This document shows positions 37,042 through 42,344 of a stretch of 64,000 nucleotides of DNA, piece by piece. The notes beneath the pieces were generated by a model that saw nothing but the letters and a program-made list of their open reading frames with translations, ran no database searches and had not been told where the DNA came from. Source of the DNA: a virus. Taxonomy: Duplodnaviria > Caudoviricetes. Position numbers and translations under genes: made by a program. Every line of letters starts with the position of its first letter. Within the stretch, counting starts at the first letter, position 1. Location: the IMG/VR virus record IMGVR_UViG_2843291059_000004, positions 1 to 64,000 of that record. One strand, written 5' to 3'.

Positions 37042-37183
37042 TTCCCATTCCTCCTTTTAGTATCCTGTATTATATAGCTAAAACTTTAAAAATGAGCGAA
37101 AAATAATAGACGTATCAACGCCATATTATTCATTCGCTTATAAAACAAAATTTCTAGCGGATTTTATGTATACCCTATCGGGC

Positions 37184-37260
37184 TGGTGGGACAGGAGAGA
37201 TTTGAACTCCCGACCAAGCGGTTATGAGCCGCCAGCTCTGACCAACTGAGCTACTATCCC
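37184..37260 (-). tRNA. tRNA-Ile2/Met (CAT)
   Basis: Cloverleaf, GGCGG-CTCATAA-CCGCT, encoded CCA; resembles Ile2 rather than fMet. Confidence 0.92.
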
Positions 37261-37299
37261 ATATTACCAGTTAAACAGCTGCAACTATTCAACTGGGCA

Positions 37300-37352
37300 C
37301 CTTCCTTATAAAACACTATTGCATCTATATCATATAGACGAGGAAGGAATAA
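37300..37352 (-). ncRNA. Unrecognised structured RNA motif copy 3
   Basis: TTATT-CCTTCCT-C-hairpin-GCAATAGTGTTTTATA-AGGAAGG. Confidence 0.55.
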
Positions 37353-37390
37353 CAGCGATGCACATTTCCTATATCTCGCCCCTTTTGGGG

Positions 37391-37449
37391 TGGTATTTCG
37401 CACAGGCGCAGCCGGGACTGACCGCTTAAAATCCCTACCCGTACGAAAT
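37391..37449 (-). ncRNA. CCA-tailed tRNA-like hairpin (59 nt)
   Basis: 13-bp terminal stem plus ACCA, abuts tRNA-Gly 3' end. Confidence 0.5.
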
Positions 37450-37524
37450 TGGAGCAGCGAAAGGTAGTCGAAACCTCATCCTCAGCTTGGAAGGCTGATA
37501 TACTAGCCGTTGTACGACCGCTGC
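37450..37524 (-). tRNA. tRNA-Gly (TCC)
   Basis: TCAGC-CTTCCAA-GCTGA, TTCGA T-loop, TCCA end. Confidence 0.92.
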
Positions 37525-37531
37525 ATGAGAA

Positions 37532-37579
37532 CCCAGCTTACAAAGCACTACTGCACCATCACTGGCGAGCTGGGAATAA
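37532..37579 (-). ncRNA. Unrecognised structured RNA motif copy 1
   Basis: TTATT-CCCAGCT-C-hairpin-GCAGTAGTGCTTTGTA-AGCTGGG. Confidence 0.55.
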
Positions 37580-37625
37580 TAGTGGTCAAAGGAGTTCAAC
37601 CATGAACAACAACGATTCATGACCG

Positions 37626-37707
37626 TGGTGCGGATAGTGGGCATCGAACCCACACGCCGAAGCACCAGATCCTAAATCTGGCGTGTCTGCCATTCCACCA
37701 TATCCGC
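37626..37707 (-). tRNA. tRNA-Leu (TAG)
   Basis: CCAGA-TTTAGGA-TCTGG, long variable arm, ACCA. Confidence 0.93.
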
Positions 37708-37712
37708 ATAAA

Positions 37713-37783
37713 TTGCGCCAACAGGGGTCGAACCTGTGATGGAGGAGTCAAAGTCCTCTGCCTTACCGCTTGGCGATGGCGCA
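37713..37783 (-). tRNA. tRNA-Gln (TTG)
   Basis: GAGGA-CTTTGAC-TCCTC; CCA not encoded. Confidence 0.9.
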
Positions 37784-37790
37784 TCATCTA

Positions 37791-37838
37791 CCCAGCTTGC
37801 TACACCACACTGCTCTGTTTCCAGAGAGCCGGGAATAA
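37791..37838 (-). ncRNA. Unrecognised structured RNA motif copy 2
   Basis: TTATT-CCCGGCT-C-hairpin-GCAGTGTGGTGTAGCA-AGCTGGG. Confidence 0.55.
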
Positions 37839-37871
37839 TGTGAATGAAAAATTCTACATGCCCTTTCGGGC

Positions 37872-37947
37872 TGGTCCGAGTGACAGGTCATGATCCTGCG
37901 GCCTCATGCTCCCAAAGCACGCGCTCTTCCAACTGAGCTACACCCGG
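37872..37947 (-). tRNA. tRNA-Pro (TGG)
   Basis: CGTGC-TTTGGGA-GCATG, ACCA; atypical T-loop ATCATGA. Confidence 0.85.
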
Positions 37948-37954
37948 ATATAAA

Positions 37955-38038
37955 TGCCACCGACGGGATTTGAACCCGTACTCTGTTGCCAGAAAGGGAT
38001 TTTAAGTCCCTCGTGCCTGCCAATTTCACCACGGTGGC
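37955..38038 (-). tRNA. tRNA-Leu (TAA)
   Basis: AGGGA-CTTAAAA-TCCCT, long variable arm; no CCA. Confidence 0.92.
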
Positions 38039-38043
38039 TTATA

Positions 38044-38125
38044 TGCCCAAAATGGGATTCGAACCCATACGCTTTCGCAGAGTTGTTTGAGAACTCCATG
38101 TCTGCCTACATTCCATCATTTGGGC
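38044..38125 (-). tRNA. tRNA-Leu (CAA)
   Basis: GAGTT-CTCAAAC-AACTC, variable arm; no CCA. Confidence 0.88.
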
Positions 38126-38193
38126 TTATATCGCCGGTCTTTCCCGGCTGTCAGCCACACACAGGGCATTTTCGGAGGAAGAAAATATCTTAG

Positions 38194-40404
38194 TTATTCG
38201 TGCCGATTCTCATAGAATTCATTCCGTAACTGAATAATACCCTTCTTGCAAAAAGATTCCTGGTCTTTCTCTCGTTGCTCACGCATCCAACCATAGAACA
38301 GGTTATCCTCAGCAGTAAACAACTTTGCGGTATTTTCATAATAGCCACGCTTCTGAACGCTCTGCATAACACCACGCAAGAACTTCCAGTGCTTATAATA
38401 AGGAAGCTTCAGCTTAAACATAAAATTGTTGTTATCTCTCAAAACAAAGCCTTCAATATGCTCGATGCCATTGTACAGATAATTCTCATTCATGACTTCT
38501 TCATACCAAGGATAGAATTCACTCCAGCTCTCAAAGATTTTAACCTTCTCCTTAATCTGCAAATGACACTTTTCAGCAACACGCTTCAGATCATCGTAAT
38601 CCATCACACTGAAGTTCATATCATTCGCAATAATATCCAGCAAAACAATATGTGGTGTCTTGTATTCGATGATATGCGGGTCATTTACAGGATCAATCAC
38701 CTCAAAAATGATGGAACCATTCTCTTTTGCAACTTCCTTCAGATTCTTACGGTCTTCATCAGAAGTCGTATCCATGAGAATTTTTCGGAACATATCTGCA
38801 AAAGGCCCTTCAGGAGTGGATTTACTTGCAATGAACAGACCATCCTGTTCTGCATCATACGAGACAATTCCAAGAAATCCGTTTTCCTTCAGATATGCAG
38901 TCACTGGGAACTTCAAAGTGTTCTGTAGGTTTCCAATTCTCGTTTCATTCCGCTCATCGACCGCAAAGAACTTATCATAGCTTCGAGCTACAATCTTATT
39001 CGTCTTTGTGTTAATGAACAATCCCCTTGCTTTGGTAGAAACCTCATCCCAGTGCTTCTTATAAAATGCTTCACGAGAGAAGTTGAAAGAAGAAATATCT
39101 CCGAATCGCTTCTCAAACACATATTTGCTTTGACGCATCTTACTGACAAGTTCTGCGTTATCGAACTCAGTTTTCATTTCAACGGCAGTTTCAGTCTTTG
39201 GCTCCTCTTTTCGGAACACATCATTCTTTGTTTCTACACATTTGATTGACTGACCATGTTCAAGTTCCACGCAACGGAGATATCCACCAAACTCGATTTT
39301 TCCTTCGAGGTTGTAGCACCGATGCCCCATATCAATAGGAACATCCTGCACATTTCGATGACCGAAGATCTGAATGTAGCTATCCGGCATCGATTTTTCC
39401 CAAGACTCAGCCACGGTTAGCATATCAGGATAGCGACCTACACCTTTAATCATCTGATCAGCAGATATAAAAGGAAGAAAATAAGGCAGATAACTCAAAC
39501 CACCGTGGCTCACGAAATACCGCTTCCCATCATACTCAAAGTAAGCACATTGGCCAACTCTGGAATAGATCTTACGAGCAGTGTTCTTGTCAATACCGGC
39601 TTTAAAGAGCTGCGGACGAGTGTAGTTTGCAAACTCTTCACTCTGAACCGGTTCATCATGCCCCCACTTGTTCAGCCAACGTTCGTGATTCCCCTCCAAA
39701 AGGATCACATTCTTGCGGTTGTTATTTACAACATCACACAAGAACTTGAATACCTCAACGTTCTCGATGCCACGATCGAGATAATCACCAACGAAGATAT
39801 AAAGTTCGTCGTCCTTCATCTCACCAAGGTATTCACTTAAACAAGTATAACAGCCATGAATGTCACCGATGACATGGATCTTCTTCCACTGGTTGAAGTC
39901 ATTCGGACAGTAGTTCAAATCGGACATCACATCTGTAGTAGAAGGAAGGACATTCACGCCAGAAGGAACTTTTTGAGTAGCAAACCGAGCGTACATCTTA
40001 TCAATGGCCGCTTCAGGAACTCGCTTCAGCCATTCTCTCTGAGCGTTTCTTCGTTTGCATTCCTCGATCGGAAGGTCCGTCATGTCAATAACATACATTC
40101 GATAACGATACTGTTTTGCAAGATTCTTATAACGATTCATTTCGACCGTCTTGGAATTCGTTGCATCAATCACGGTAAACTCGCCATGACTCATGCGCAC
40201 CTCAAGCAGTTTAAAAAGCATCTCCCATACAACATCATCATTCTGCGGAGAAATCTCCATCTTCCCGGCAGGTGTTTCCTGTGCGCTCTGGCACATAAGG
40301 CGAAGTGTATCAGCACTCAATACGTACTGCTCAAGATTATGCTCTTTAATATAGGTGGACTTCCCACAACCTGGTGCTCCACGGAACAGCAAAAGCGTTC
40401 TCAT
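38194..40404 (-). CDS. Pnkp-like RNA repair enzyme: polynucleotide kinase + metallophosphoesterase + RNA ligase
   Basis: GAPGCGKST/VIDATN kinase; GDIHG, GDYLDRG, GNHE phosphoesterase; KARGLF, KENGFLG, FEVI, EGFVL, KLK ligase motifs. Confidence 0.88.
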   Translation of the reverse strand: MRTLLLFRGAPGCGKSTYIKEHNLEQYVLSADTLRLMCQSAQETPAGKMEISPQNDDVVWEMLFKLLEVRMSHGEFTVIDATNSKTVEMNRYKNLAKQYRYRMYVIDMTDLPIEECKRRNAQREWLKRVPEAAIDKMYARFATQKVPSGVNVLPSTTDVMSDLNYCPNDFNQWKKIHVIGDIHGCYTCLSEYLGEMKDDELYIFVGDYLDRGIENVEVFKFLCDVVNNNRKNVILLEGNHERWLNKWGHDEPVQSEEFANYTRPQLFKAGIDKNTARKIYSRVGQCAYFEYDGKRYFVSHGGLSYLPYFLPFISADQMIKGVGRYPDMLTVAESWEKSMPDSYIQIFGHRNVQDVPIDMGHRCYNLEGKIEFGGYLRCVELEHGQSIKCVETKNDVFRKEEPKTETAVEMKTEFDNAELVSKMRQSKYVFEKRFGDISSFNFSREAFYKKHWDEVSTKARGLFINTKTNKIVARSYDKFFAVDERNETRIGNLQNTLKFPVTAYLKENGFLGIVSYDAEQDGLFIASKSTPEGPFADMFRKILMDTTSDEDRKNLKEVAKENGSIIFEVIDPVNDPHIIEYKTPHIVLLDIIANDMNFSVMDYDDLKRVAEKCHLQIKEKVKIFESWSEFYPWYEEVMNENYLYNGIEHIEGFVLRDNNNFMFKLKLPYYKHWKFLRGVMQSVQKRGYYENTAKLFTAEDNLFYGWMREQREKDQESFCKKGIIQLRNEFYENRHE

Positions 40405-40481: not shown

Positions 40482-41408
40482 TTAATTTTTGTGGAAGTAT
40501 TCGATCCAGCCCTTGTATCCTTGCCGGAAACTAATGTATGCAACCTTGCTGCACTTTCTTCCGATAATGTCCGCAAGAGGATCTTTACCATTTCCGAAAC
40601 TAAGTTCTGTAAGATTAAATTCTGGATGAGTTTTGCAGTAGTTATAAACCTTTACATACTCGCCGTTTCTGGTCAGATGTCTTCGGTCTAAAGCCTTTGA
40701 ATGATATCTTCTTTCGAGAATATCATTCAAGCGCGTGAAATAACTATGAATCGTATTCGTAGACATTCTTGAATCACTGTCTGCACCAGTTCTATCCTCT
40801 GTTTTGCGAAGAATGTAATCACCATTTATGACATAAAACGTTCTGTATCCTCCCATATTGGGGGCATCATATTGTTTCATTTCATAACACTGCTTGATGA
40901 TATTCATCAGTCTCGCGTCAACACTGGTCTTATTCAAAACAGTACATGATTCAAAGTCAACATCGTTAATCGTCAGATTGGAAACTTCTTCAGAAGTAAG
41001 GCCAATCCAGTACAGCACGGCAATCACATTCATACGAATCTGATATGGCTCTTCATACTTGTCCAAGAAATCAACAAACTCATCAACTGACGCAAAATAC
41101 TTGTCCTCGTACATATTGTCTGAACTCACATCGCTCTCCGAGAATTCAGCTAAGTCATACATACTCGCTCGATCCTCACTTTTGATGTACCCTGTAATTA
41201 TCGACTTTACATTTCTGAACGACCGACTTGAGTTCACCCAATTGTATTTAGCAAACATCTTTACAAAATCATCTTTTGTGAAGTCAAACAACTCATACCC
41301 ACGCTCGGCCTCGTAATCCATAACATGGTTAAGCGTCGATATAACAAACTCACCGCTTCTATCAGAATACTTTTCGGCAAAAGCTTTGATTTTTTCTTCA
41401 GTAAGCAT
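40482..41408 (-). CDS. Tyrosine-recombinase-fold protein, probably inactive; MrpR/YopR-like master repressor
   Basis: Box I VLYWIGLTSEEVSNLTINDVDF with Thr at the catalytic Arg position; helical N-terminal domain; SPbeta-like context. Confidence 0.7.
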   Translation of the reverse strand: MLTEEKIKAFAEKYSDRSGEFVISTLNHVMDYEAERGYELFDFTKDDFVKMFAKYNWVNSSRSFRNVKSIITGYIKSEDRASMYDLAEFSESDVSSDNMYEDKYFASVDEFVDFLDKYEEPYQIRMNVIAVLYWIGLTSEEVSNLTINDVDFESCTVLNKTSVDARLMNIIKQCYEMKQYDAPNMGGYRTFYVINGDYILRKTEDRTGADSDSRMSTNTIHSYFTRLNDILERRYHSKALDRRHLTRNGEYVKVYNYCKTHPEFNLTELSFGNGKDPLADIIGRKCSKVAYISFRQGYKGWIEYFHKN

Positions 41409-41459: not shown

Positions 41460-41885
41460 TCAAGCAAATGCGGCAAAATTCTGAAATTCCATAGTATGTT
41501 GTACGCCGCTCAGAAATGCTGCGAGCAAAAATGGTTCATCTTTGCATCTTGCCATTGCAATCATATTCATCTGACGCTCCGACAAAACACCAAGTTTCTT
41601 GATGAACTGTCCTTTGTTAAGTGTATCAGTCTCTTCGCAGAGAACGATACTATCAACCTCTAGGAACTCACAGTCTTCCTTTGAAAGTAGAACATGAACC
41701 GGAGAACGCTTGCATGTTCTTGAAGATAACGGATTCCCCTTGATTGTTGGGCTGAAGAGGTTACGCTTGTTGTTACTTGTCACAACGAACGGTCGAATGC
41801 CGCGCTGCTGATGACCTGTCGCATTAGATAGATCAACCAACCAAACCTCTCCGACCTTTGGGTCAATATTGTTATCCATAGTCAT
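41460..41885 (-). CDS. mazF: MazF/PemK-family endoribonuclease (orphan)
   Basis: GEVWLVDL...GHQQRGIRPFVVTSN, PLSS, HV.L, DSIVLCE, KKLG.L. Confidence 0.85.
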   Translation of the reverse strand: MTMDNNIDPKVGEVWLVDLSNATGHQQRGIRPFVVTSNNKRNLFSPTIKGNPLSSRTCKRSPVHVLLSKEDCEFLEVDSIVLCEETDTLNKGQFIKKLGVLSERQMNMIAMARCKDEPFLLAAFLSGVQHTMEFQNFAAFA

Positions 41886-41970: not shown

Positions 41971-42300
41971 TTAGTGCCCGTACAACTCAGGATTCTCTGA
42001 TACGAACACACTGATATTATTATCGAAGATCATCTCATACGCTTTCTCTGCACAGCCAGACCTAAGTTCAATTCTCCTTACTTCATGGCATTTTTGTCGC
42101 AACTCGATGTGACTCTCATTTCCGAAGAACCCCACGCCATTAACAATCCCCCCCGTCTCTACGCCAATGTCGTCAATCTTTTTGCAGATCATGTGAATAT
42201 CCACACCATTACAAACAAAGCAGACCCACACTCGCTTTTTTCTTATGTACTTTAAAAAATCATCAACCCGTATAACTTTCAAAACCTTTCTATCGCTCAT
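41971..42300 (-). CDS. Hypothetical protein
   Basis: GAAGG RBS, own promoter. Confidence 0.65.
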   Translation of the reverse strand: MSDRKVLKVIRVDDFLKYIRKKRVWVCFVCNGVDIHMICKKIDDIGVETGGIVNGVGFFGNESHIELRQKCHEVRRIELRSGCAEKAYEMIFDNNISVFVSENPELYGH

Positions 42301-42344
42301 CAAGAATAACCGCCTTCCGCTCACACAAACAACTTTCAAGATAT

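Follow-up and report, generated by a model that had tools for sequence, protein, structure and literature searches.

The locus analyzed here raises the question of what a short structured RNA, repeated three times between the transfer RNA (tRNA) genes of a gut phage, is doing there. The stretch under study, hereafter the window, comprises positions 1 to 64,000 of the IMG/VR record IMGVR_UViG_2843291059_000004 (Duplodnaviria; Caudoviricetes), a record of 134,478 bp (134 kb) classed in IMG/VR as a complete provirus. A first-pass annotation, made from the sequence alone, had described on the minus strand three copies of an unrecognised element, each consisting of TTATT, a 7-bp stem, a single C, a small hairpin and 16 nucleotides (nt) beginning with GCART, and all of these parts were verified. 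The element is an H-type pseudoknot, with helices of 5 bp and 7 bp and a hairpin inserted at their junction, and its position among the tRNA genes points to a role most likely in the processing or stability of tRNA precursors.

The element folds as a pseudoknot

From 5' to 3' the element is composed of the first strand of the pseudoknot helix (PK5', 5 nt), UUAUU (L1), the 5' strand of the closing helix S2 (7 nt), a single C, the hairpin P2, GCAR, the second strand of the pseudoknot helix (PK3', 5 nt), a linker of the form YNYWRYA (L3) and the 3' strand of S2 (7 nt). Its size is 53-58 nt in the window and reaches about 80 nt in relatives. The three copies are the following, with scores from a covariance model of the family.

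37532-37584, minus strand: copy A (copy 1 of the first-pass annotation), covarying helices, 74.4 bits; PK5' CACUA 37580-37584, L1 UUAUU 37575-37579, S2 5' strand 37568-37574, C 37567, P2 hairpin 37555-37566 (GUGA loop), GCAG 37551-37554, PK3' UAGUG 37546-37550, L3 CUUUGUA 37539-37545, S2 3' strand 37532-37538
37791-37843, minus strand: copy B (formerly copy 2), 64.7 bits; PK5' UCACA 37839-37843, L1 37834-37838, S2 5' strand 37827-37833, C 37826, P2 37814-37825 (GAAA loop), GCAG 37810-37813, PK3' UGUGG 37805-37809, L3 37798-37804, S2 3' strand 37791-37797
37300-37357, minus strand: copy C (formerly copy 3), 59.9 bits; PK5' CGCUG 37353-37357, L1 37348-37352, S2 5' strand 37341-37347, C 37340, P2 37323-37339 (7-bp stem), GCAA 37319-37322, PK3' UAGUG 37314-37318, L3 UUUUAUA 37307-37313, S2 3' strand 37300-37306

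The copies are thus real, but their true 5' start lies 5 nt further upstream than first drawn, and the upper bound of the region is 37843 and not 37838. Likewise, the 16-nt segment does start with GCART but is not an open loop, since its nucleotides 5-9 pair with the 5 nt upstream of TTATT, which are the first 5 nt of the element, to form the pseudoknot helix (CACUA/UAGUG in copy A, UCACA/UGUGG in copy B and CGCUG/UAGUG in copy C). The earlier suggestion of a guide RNA with a variable 16-nt loop fails on the same observation, because the variable bases are paired within the molecule and covary with their partners. A structural pattern built from the description matched these three copies in the window and nothing in 100 shuffles, and in the whole record it returned the same three and no others, all inside the tRNA array.

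In order to gather relatives, IMG/VR was scanned with patterns, which yielded many related contigs of 110-140 kb carrying several sequence types of the element. Altogether about 90 distinct variants from well over 100 related gut-phage contigs display covariation in the three helices, in accordance with the first-pass claim of a covarying structured RNA on the tRNA strand. The two sides of the pseudoknot change together from type to type (CACUA/UAGUG, UCACA/UGUGA, CGCUG/UAGCG, UCCUA/UAGGA, GUCAA/UUGAC and GUACG/CGUGC), and they do so again in remoter relatives (CCUUG/UAAGG, CCUUA/UAAGG, UCUUG/CAAGG and GUCAA/UUGGC). Among 49 unique variants 99.5% of the cells are paired, against 30-47% when the partners are slid by 1-3 columns, and two-sided changes affect all five pseudoknot pairs, four of the seven S2 pairs and the three P2 pairs that were counted. 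This set was chosen by a filter that demanded pairing, and therefore a covariance model devoid of the pseudoknot pairs was built and its sister-clade matches were aligned with no pairing filter. In this second alignment pairing was 99.4%, against 24-55% in the slid controls, and matches missed by the regular-expression pattern likewise retain the pseudoknot. The covariance model and the search of phage contigs that had been proposed at the outset accordingly returned both homologs and covariation.

The strand can also be assigned. In the 49-variant alignment G-U pairs account for 71 of the 735 cells; read on the opposite strand these would become A-C mismatches, and the fold is therefore specific to the RNA of tRNA sense. 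A repeat acting at the DNA level was considered and rejected on the same grounds.

What is kept and what is free in the element follows a distinct pattern. Every type has helices of exactly 7 and 5 bp and a side arm where the two meet, while P2 varies from 12 to 36 nt (4-12 bp) and is capped by GNRA, UNCG or other loops, and the 3' linker is 6, 7 or 13 nt long. Almost no change is seen, among the approximately 90 unique variants, in UUAUU, in the single C, in GCA, in the final A or in the last two pairs of S2, so that about 14 junction and loop letters stay fixed while the helices turn over. The base following the 3' strand of S2 is a U in 424 of 451 instances. No support was found, on inspection of the variants by eye, for additional tertiary pairs (the 3' linker with UUAUU or GCAR, a P1.1-like helix, an 11-nt GNRA receptor or a T-loop).

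The constancy of the two helices and the side arm at their junction would suit a tRNA-like pseudo-substrate, in which the 7-bp and 5-bp helices stack as a 12-bp rod resembling a permuted acceptor/T-arm stack, to be cut by RNase P after UUAUU, by RNase Z after the U beyond the 3' strand, or bound by another tRNA-binding enzyme. The frequency of that U and the resemblance of UUAUU to the AU-rich leaders of the array tRNAs are in line with this idea. Nevertheless, we consider it quite improbable, since the element has no T-loop, elbow or CCA, is called neither by ARAGORN nor by the Rfam tRNA model (RF00005) and, judging from its topology, has RNA ends that exit at opposite ends of the stack, unlike those of a tRNA. 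Nor is the element itself a tRNA: the cloverleaf or acceptor-T stack, the T-loop and the 3' CCA are all missing, and no CCA follows it.

Position of the element in the tRNA array

The array and the parts of it that bear on the element are the following.

37184-38125, minus strand: tRNA array, in the order Leu(caa), Leu(taa), Pro, copy B, Gln, Leu(tag), copy A, Gly, minihelix, copy C, Met
37860-37871, minus strand: hairpin GCCC-GAAA-GGGC, adjoining on the 3' side the CCA encoded by tRNA-Pro; the slot-1 module begins here
37844-37859, minus strand: AU-rich spacer of 16 nt from the slot-1 hairpin to copy B
37784-37790, minus strand: linker of 7 nt, UAGAUGA, from copy B to tRNA-Gln(ttg)
37713-37783, minus strand: tRNA-Gln(ttg)
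37597-37625, minus strand: hairpin adjoining on the 3' side the CCA encoded by tRNA-Leu(tag); the slot-2 module begins here
37525-37531, minus strand: linker of 7 nt, UUCUCAU, from copy A to tRNA-Gly(tcc)
37450-37524, minus strand: tRNA-Gly(tcc)
37267-37296, minus strand: 12-bp hairpin in the interval between copy C and tRNA-Met, 3 nt after the former and 6 nt before the latter
37184-37260, minus strand: tRNA-Met

Seven tRNA genes (Leu-caa, Leu-taa, Pro, Gln, Leu-tag, Gly and Met) are recognized by ARAGORN and RF00005. Copies A and B end, as had been noted, exactly 7 nt before tRNA-Gly and tRNA-Gln (37532 against 37524 and 37791 against 37783, in ARAGORN coordinates), and this spacing is a general property of the family: in most of about 440 instances the gap to the next tRNA is 7 nt (range 6-9), and the gene downstream is tRNA-Gln, Gly(tcc), Gly(ccc), His or a tRNA-like gene. 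In the sister clade the gap is 7-8 nt, before Gly-tcc, Gly-ccc and a tRNA-like gene missed by ARAGORN. Across 61 orthologous regions of the second slot the element is nearly invariant, and the linker keeps its length while its sequence is free.

A typical array of the relatives has two or three elements, placed in recurrent slots. The first slot reads Pro, then the module of hairpin, spacer and element, then 7 nt and Gln; the second reads Leu-tag, the same kind of module, 7 nt and Gly or His; and the third reads Gly, a CCA-tailed minihelix, a hairpin, the element, 3 nt, a hairpin, 6 nt and Met, Ile or Gly. The tRNAs that precede a module encode their CCA, which is followed at once by the hairpin and then by an AU-rich single strand, whereas tRNAs with the next tRNA within 5-7 nt have no encoded CCA. 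The slot-1 hairpin differs in its letters among relatives and is kept as a hairpin. Other tRNAs of the array have plain hairpins 6-7 nt upstream, in the place taken elsewhere by the element.

A spacing that is fixed over a linker of free sequence, the confinement of the element to the array and the rule of a structure followed by about 7 nt and a tRNA argue together for a module that acts in cis. We tentatively favor the view that the element forms a structured module in the 5' leader of the tRNA precursor and is set free by RNase P; of the roles proposed in the first-pass annotation, that of a tRNA-processing element comes closest to this. The element would be transcribed within the polycistronic tRNA precursor and the knot, with its 5' strand tucked into the junction in a strand order like that of the hepatitis delta virus (HDV) ribozyme, would supply the folded portion of the 5' leader belonging to the next tRNA, leaving a single-stranded AU-rich linker of about 7 nt. 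The fixed gap makes release by RNase P plausible, and a cut at the tRNA 5' end would yield a leader fragment made of the knot plus 7 nt. In the precursor the knot may keep a long spacer from disturbing the folding of the tRNA. Once the AU-rich stretch that separates the knot from the hairpin next to the upstream CCA has been cut, the knot may also block decay proceeding 5' to 3'. Co-transcription, release and the barrier or insulator role are what we infer from a fold, a strand, a covariation and a spacing that are directly observed in an optional module.

Several points weigh against this view. In the third slot of the main clade the element lies 39-41 nt from the tRNA with a hairpin interposed, as does copy C in the window (39 nt from tRNA-Met, beyond the 12-bp hairpin). 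The module is dispensable, the gap between Pro and Gln being 3-5 nt in L135, L140, L141 and L149 (L with a number denotes the relative loci, from IMG/VR and other contigs, compared here). In fact, L149, which has no module, shares the last five linker bases and the tRNA-Gln allele with the module-bearing L121, and the only copy that L135 retains has decayed. A knot and a hairpin placed 3' of a CCA-ended tRNA should hinder exonucleolytic 3' trimming, and the presence of RNase J or RNase Y in the host is presumed only from the SPbeta-like affinity of the phage. Finally, a plain insulator or roadblock leaves the approximately 14 fixed letters unexplained, and a specific binding or catalytic site fits them better. 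The invariant junction suggests that a specific protein or nuclease may recognize the element as well, and with the helices turned over around these fixed letters the readings of recognition, decoy and catalysis stay alive.

Signals of transcription were also considered. No sigma-70-like promoter was found on the array strand inside the array, and the element was therefore rejected as a promoter mark of transcript starts. The elements are not intrinsic terminators either, since the only terminator-like site (37122-37109) lies beyond the array, after the last tRNA. A small-molecule aptamer that would make maturation of the downstream tRNA conditional finds some appeal in the compact pseudoknot, in the invariant junction and in a size within the range of pseudoknot riboswitches. 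Yet the element has no expression platform, matches no riboswitch model, occurs in several copies per operon and is narrowly distributed, and such an aptamer appears highly improbable.

Other small structures accompany the element in the array. Short hairpins, often of 4 bp with a GNRA-type loop, lie directly 3' of each CCA-encoding tRNA or minihelix (37860-37871, 37597-37625, 37379-37390 and 37172-37183, minus strand); their sequence changes among relatives while the hairpin is kept, and they are absent after tRNAs that closely abut the next one. The minihelix (37391-37449, minus strand; 59 nt) begins right after the CCA of tRNA-Gly, forms a long stem ending in ACCA, is conserved in relatives and is followed by a CCCC-AAAA-GGGG hairpin. 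Pyrimidine-rich tracts resembling an anti-Shine-Dalgarno sequence (CUCCUUU, ACCUUUCC, ACCUCAU) are often found just before the element (for example at 37585-37596 and in L121, L256 and L258).

The arrays of relatives display further peculiarities. Genes resembling tRNAs and missed by ARAGORN occur in L116 (in a 227-nt spacer between Gly and Met), L258 (2535-2605) and L256 (725-795), with normal acceptor, D and T arms and a shortened or aberrant anticodon arm, and in the L116 spacer a hairpin stands between such a gene and tRNA-Met, its end lying 7 nt short of the latter. Unusual anticodons were called by ARAGORN in L115, L139, L190 and others, namely His(atg), Ile(tat) and Tyr(ata), with Ile(tat) occupying the Met(cat) slot in some relatives. 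In otherwise compact arrays, insertions of 765-985 nt are found between Leu-caa and Leu-taa or after Leu-tag (L121, L131, L140, L141, L149, L167 and L270), and these may be mobile genes such as those for homing endonucleases.

Neighboring genes and the possibility of an action in trans

Upstream of the array, on the same strand, four genes are found.

38194-40404, minus strand: kinase-phosphoesterase-ligase fusion, 736 aa, directly upstream of the array
40482-41408, minus strand: tyrosine-recombinase-like gene, between the MazF gene and the ligase gene
41460-41885, minus strand: PemK/MazF-like toxin gene (E 4.6e-19), 3.6 kb from the elements
41971-42339, minus strand: open reading frame (ORF) of 109-122 aa, no Pfam match, just upstream of MazF

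The fusion protein combines a P-loop polynucleotide kinase (residues 4-142), a metallophosphoesterase (175-353) and an RNA ligase of the T4 Rnl1 type (458-670), and by its domain content it is a complete RNA heal-and-seal enzyme. Its nearest named relatives, with about 45% identity, belong to SPbeta-like Bacillus prophages of 124-134 kb, and relatives at a similar level, unannotated or loosely annotated, are found in Twort-like and other Firmicute phages. In the SPbeta-like phage Goe11 no tRNAs lie beside the fusion gene. A GCCGG-GAAAGA-CCGGC hairpin (38133-38148, minus strand) stands after the ligase ORF and ends 7 nt before the first tRNA, Leu-caa, and a cut by RNase P before this tRNA would give the ligase messenger RNA a hairpin near its 3' end. 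From the usual position of antitoxin genes, the 109-122-aa ORF probably encodes the protein antitoxin of MazF.

The first-pass annotation had proposed that the RNAs could serve as decoys or antitoxins for host nucleases or the neighboring MazF. A link to MazF is not supported. Such a link does not agree with the distribution of the two: MazF is present in all 80 main-clade loci, including L135, in which it is 96% identical and no intact element exists, and in the sister clade the element occurs at loci whose flanks, covered for MazF over up to about 12 kb, contain neither this gene nor that of the ligase.

A broader form of the same idea is that the element acts in trans, the knot plus 7 nt being released by RNase P and titrating a protein through its invariant junction, as a decoy or sponge of which each transcript would supply several. 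Possible targets are a nuclease of host defence, an enzyme of RNA repair or processing, and a phage regulator. The conserved loops on diverged helices, the two or three copies per array, the accessory character of the element, whose presence and absence vary as in anti-defence genes, and the richness of the array in other odd tRNA-like RNAs, themselves potential decoys, are all compatible with such a role. On the other hand, the strict spacing of about 7 nt to the tRNA and the restriction to arrays point to a function in cis, and the occurrence of the element does not follow that of its obvious neighbors, MazF and the kinase-phosphatase-ligase. We therefore regard an action in trans as unlikely, and retain the cis-acting leader module as the preferred reading.

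Distribution of the family

The element is confined to a lineage of large phages of the human gut. At least 80 relatives of the ligase-fusion gene with 88-99% identity are found in IMG/VR, all with a tRNA array, and the 90%-identity cluster of this gene has 2,003 members. The prophage is also present in the isolate assembly GCA_003478405.1, and remoter carriers are a scaffold from Mexican human faeces (MT835676.1) and the sister clade of 140-150-kb contigs. When the array was compared with GenBank phages by blastn only tRNA cross-matches were obtained, MT835676.1 excepted, and a comparison with three RNA runs (as assembled contigs) gave mostly tRNA cross-matches from other organisms.

Outside this lineage, a scan of viral contigs with patterns based on S2 sequences not used by the clade returned 23 loci, all scoring 19 bits or less with the model, and a scan of 185,579 species genomes returned 30 loci, all at 20.5 bits or less, which is the level of chance. 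These patterns fix the junction letters, and very divergent relatives could thus be missed; as far as they reach, the RNA family is real and narrowly distributed. The first-pass annotation did not recognize the element as a known family, and the Rfam search it had called for bears this out, with no match in Rfam 15 at the gathering score or at E<=10; in region 37100-38250 cmscan reported at E<=10 only tRNA matches and noise. In the literature we found no description of a pseudoknot on the 5' side of tRNAs in phage tRNA arrays.

Phage tRNA arrays are emerging as hiding places of small functional RNAs, and the element described here adds to them an unusually clean three-helix covariation, a fixed junction and a precise spacing rule to tRNA 5' ends, in two or three copies per genome of a very prevalent gut-phage lineage. 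It may offer a small and tractable system in which to study the punctuation and protection of polycistronic tRNA precursors by phages. If it turned out to be catalytic or to block nucleases, it would constitute a compact new part for RNA engineering; if it were only a structured spacer, an Rfam entry would still be needed, or else the element will keep being overlooked.

Comparison with known systems

A close parallel is the theta ribozyme, first found in 2024 in phage tRNA arrays and described as an HDV-like ribozyme lacking P4 that lies at the 3' ends of gut-phage tRNAs (Kienbeck et al. 2024, PMC10879173). Its layout comprises a P1 of 6-7 nt starting from G, a J1/2 of 1-3 nt, a P2 of 7 nt, a 3-bp P3 with a U-CC-NCGY loop, P1', GG, L4, a J4/2 starting with C, and P2' (PMC10879173). 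Like theta and minimal HDV-like ribozymes, the element is pseudoknotted, about 50-60 nt long and interleaved with tRNAs of human-gut Caudoviricetes; it has the strand order P1, J1/2, P2, P3 hairpin, P1', linker and P2' with no P4; and it shares with theta the 7-bp outer helix and a 3' linker ending in purine-pyrimidine-A.

In contrast, the element has no G1, its first base being C, U or G, and its 5' helix has 5 bp instead of the 6-7 of theta and is followed by the 5-nt linker UUAUU. The hairpin has 4-12 bp and variable loops (GUGA, GAAA, UGA, A-runs, UACG and others) in place of the 3-bp P3 with its U-CC-NCGY loop, and CU, CG or UU stands after P1' where theta has GG. A P3 so long and variable, with its GNRA, UNCG or other loops, leaves no way to form a CC/GG P1.1. 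The 3' linker has no position that is always C (UUUUAUA in copy C) and hence no conserved catalytic C. Furthermore, the element lies 7 nt before the tRNA 5' end and not within +/-5 nt of the tRNA 3' end. Since G1, P1.1 and the catalytic C of the HDV core are absent, the element is alike in topology and is not a member of the HDV-like or theta group, and catalysis by the HDV mechanism seems unlikely.

Self-cleavage may nevertheless be considered, either by a new class or by a very aberrant HDV-like ribozyme, which would cut near its own 5' edge or within UUAUU and so separate tRNA units whose ends the phage kinase-phosphatase-ligase would heal. The strand order and the 7-bp outer helix shared with P4-less HDV-like and theta ribozymes (PMC10879173), the junction letters kept while the helices vary, the healing and sealing gene (kinase, 2',3'-phosphoesterase and Rnl1-type ligase) immediately upstream of the array, and a theta-like placement 2 nt after the CCA of tRNA-Pro in three contigs would all agree with it. 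That placement is found in these three contigs only, the usual distance to the upstream tRNA being a variable 27-47 nt, and no ligase gene lies near the sister-clade arrays. The G at +1, P1.1 and the obligatory C of the 3' linker are missing, models of the HDV, hammerhead, twister, pistol and hatchet ribozymes give no match at E<=10, and the element sequences do not appear in the compared portions of the supplementary lists of theta ribozymes. We thus judge a self-cleaving ribozyme improbable. Similarly doubtful, from the features at hand, is a new class of small catalytic or enzyme-guiding RNA with HDV-like strand order and a distinct active site built from the UUAUU, C and GCAR junction; were it real, it would cut or mark precursors 5' of tRNAs, as a counterpart to the theta ribozymes on the 3' side. 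The probability left after the leader module, the trans-acting RNA, the pseudo-substrate, the aptamer and the ribozyme goes to something else.

Other RNAs offer further parallels to the element. The stable RNAs species 1 and 2 of phage T4 (rnaC and rnaD), each encoded in single copy, measure about 120-140 nt and end like tRNAs in CCA. The element resembles them as a structured RNA that is not a tRNA within a phage tRNA operon, presumably excised by the tRNA-processing machinery, and differs in being a repeated knot of about 55 nt with no CCA. In the eukaryotic MALAT1/mascRNA system a triple helix lies upstream of a tRNA-like unit, and RNase P leaves a structured 3' end. There too a stable tertiary structure stands just upstream of a tRNA or tRNA-like unit, although here it is a pseudoknot and the upstream product is a spacer or tRNA trailer rather than a long RNA.

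The RNAs of type III toxin-antitoxin systems (ToxI, CptI and AntiQ) are tandem identical direct repeats immediately upstream of the toxin gene whose product cuts them, and toxins of the MazF fold are distant structural kin of ToxN. Like these, the elements are short, repeated, pseudoknot-forming RNAs in a phage-related context. Unlike them, the copies are diverged, separated by tRNAs, 3.6 kb from MazF and uncoupled from it in occurrence, and tandem near-identical repeats upstream of a toxin of the ToxN, AbiQ or CptN type were not found.

The last comparison concerns the exonuclease-resistant RNAs (xrRNAs) of flaviviruses and coremin (xrRNA-C). No sequence relationship to them was found, a second pseudoknot or ring is absent, and the element is peculiar to tRNA arrays. 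Its 5'-most nucleotides pair, as in xrRNAs, with a junction strand enclosed by the closing helix, a topology that would resist unfolding from the 5' side. Like xrRNAs, the element is placed at the boundaries between functional units.

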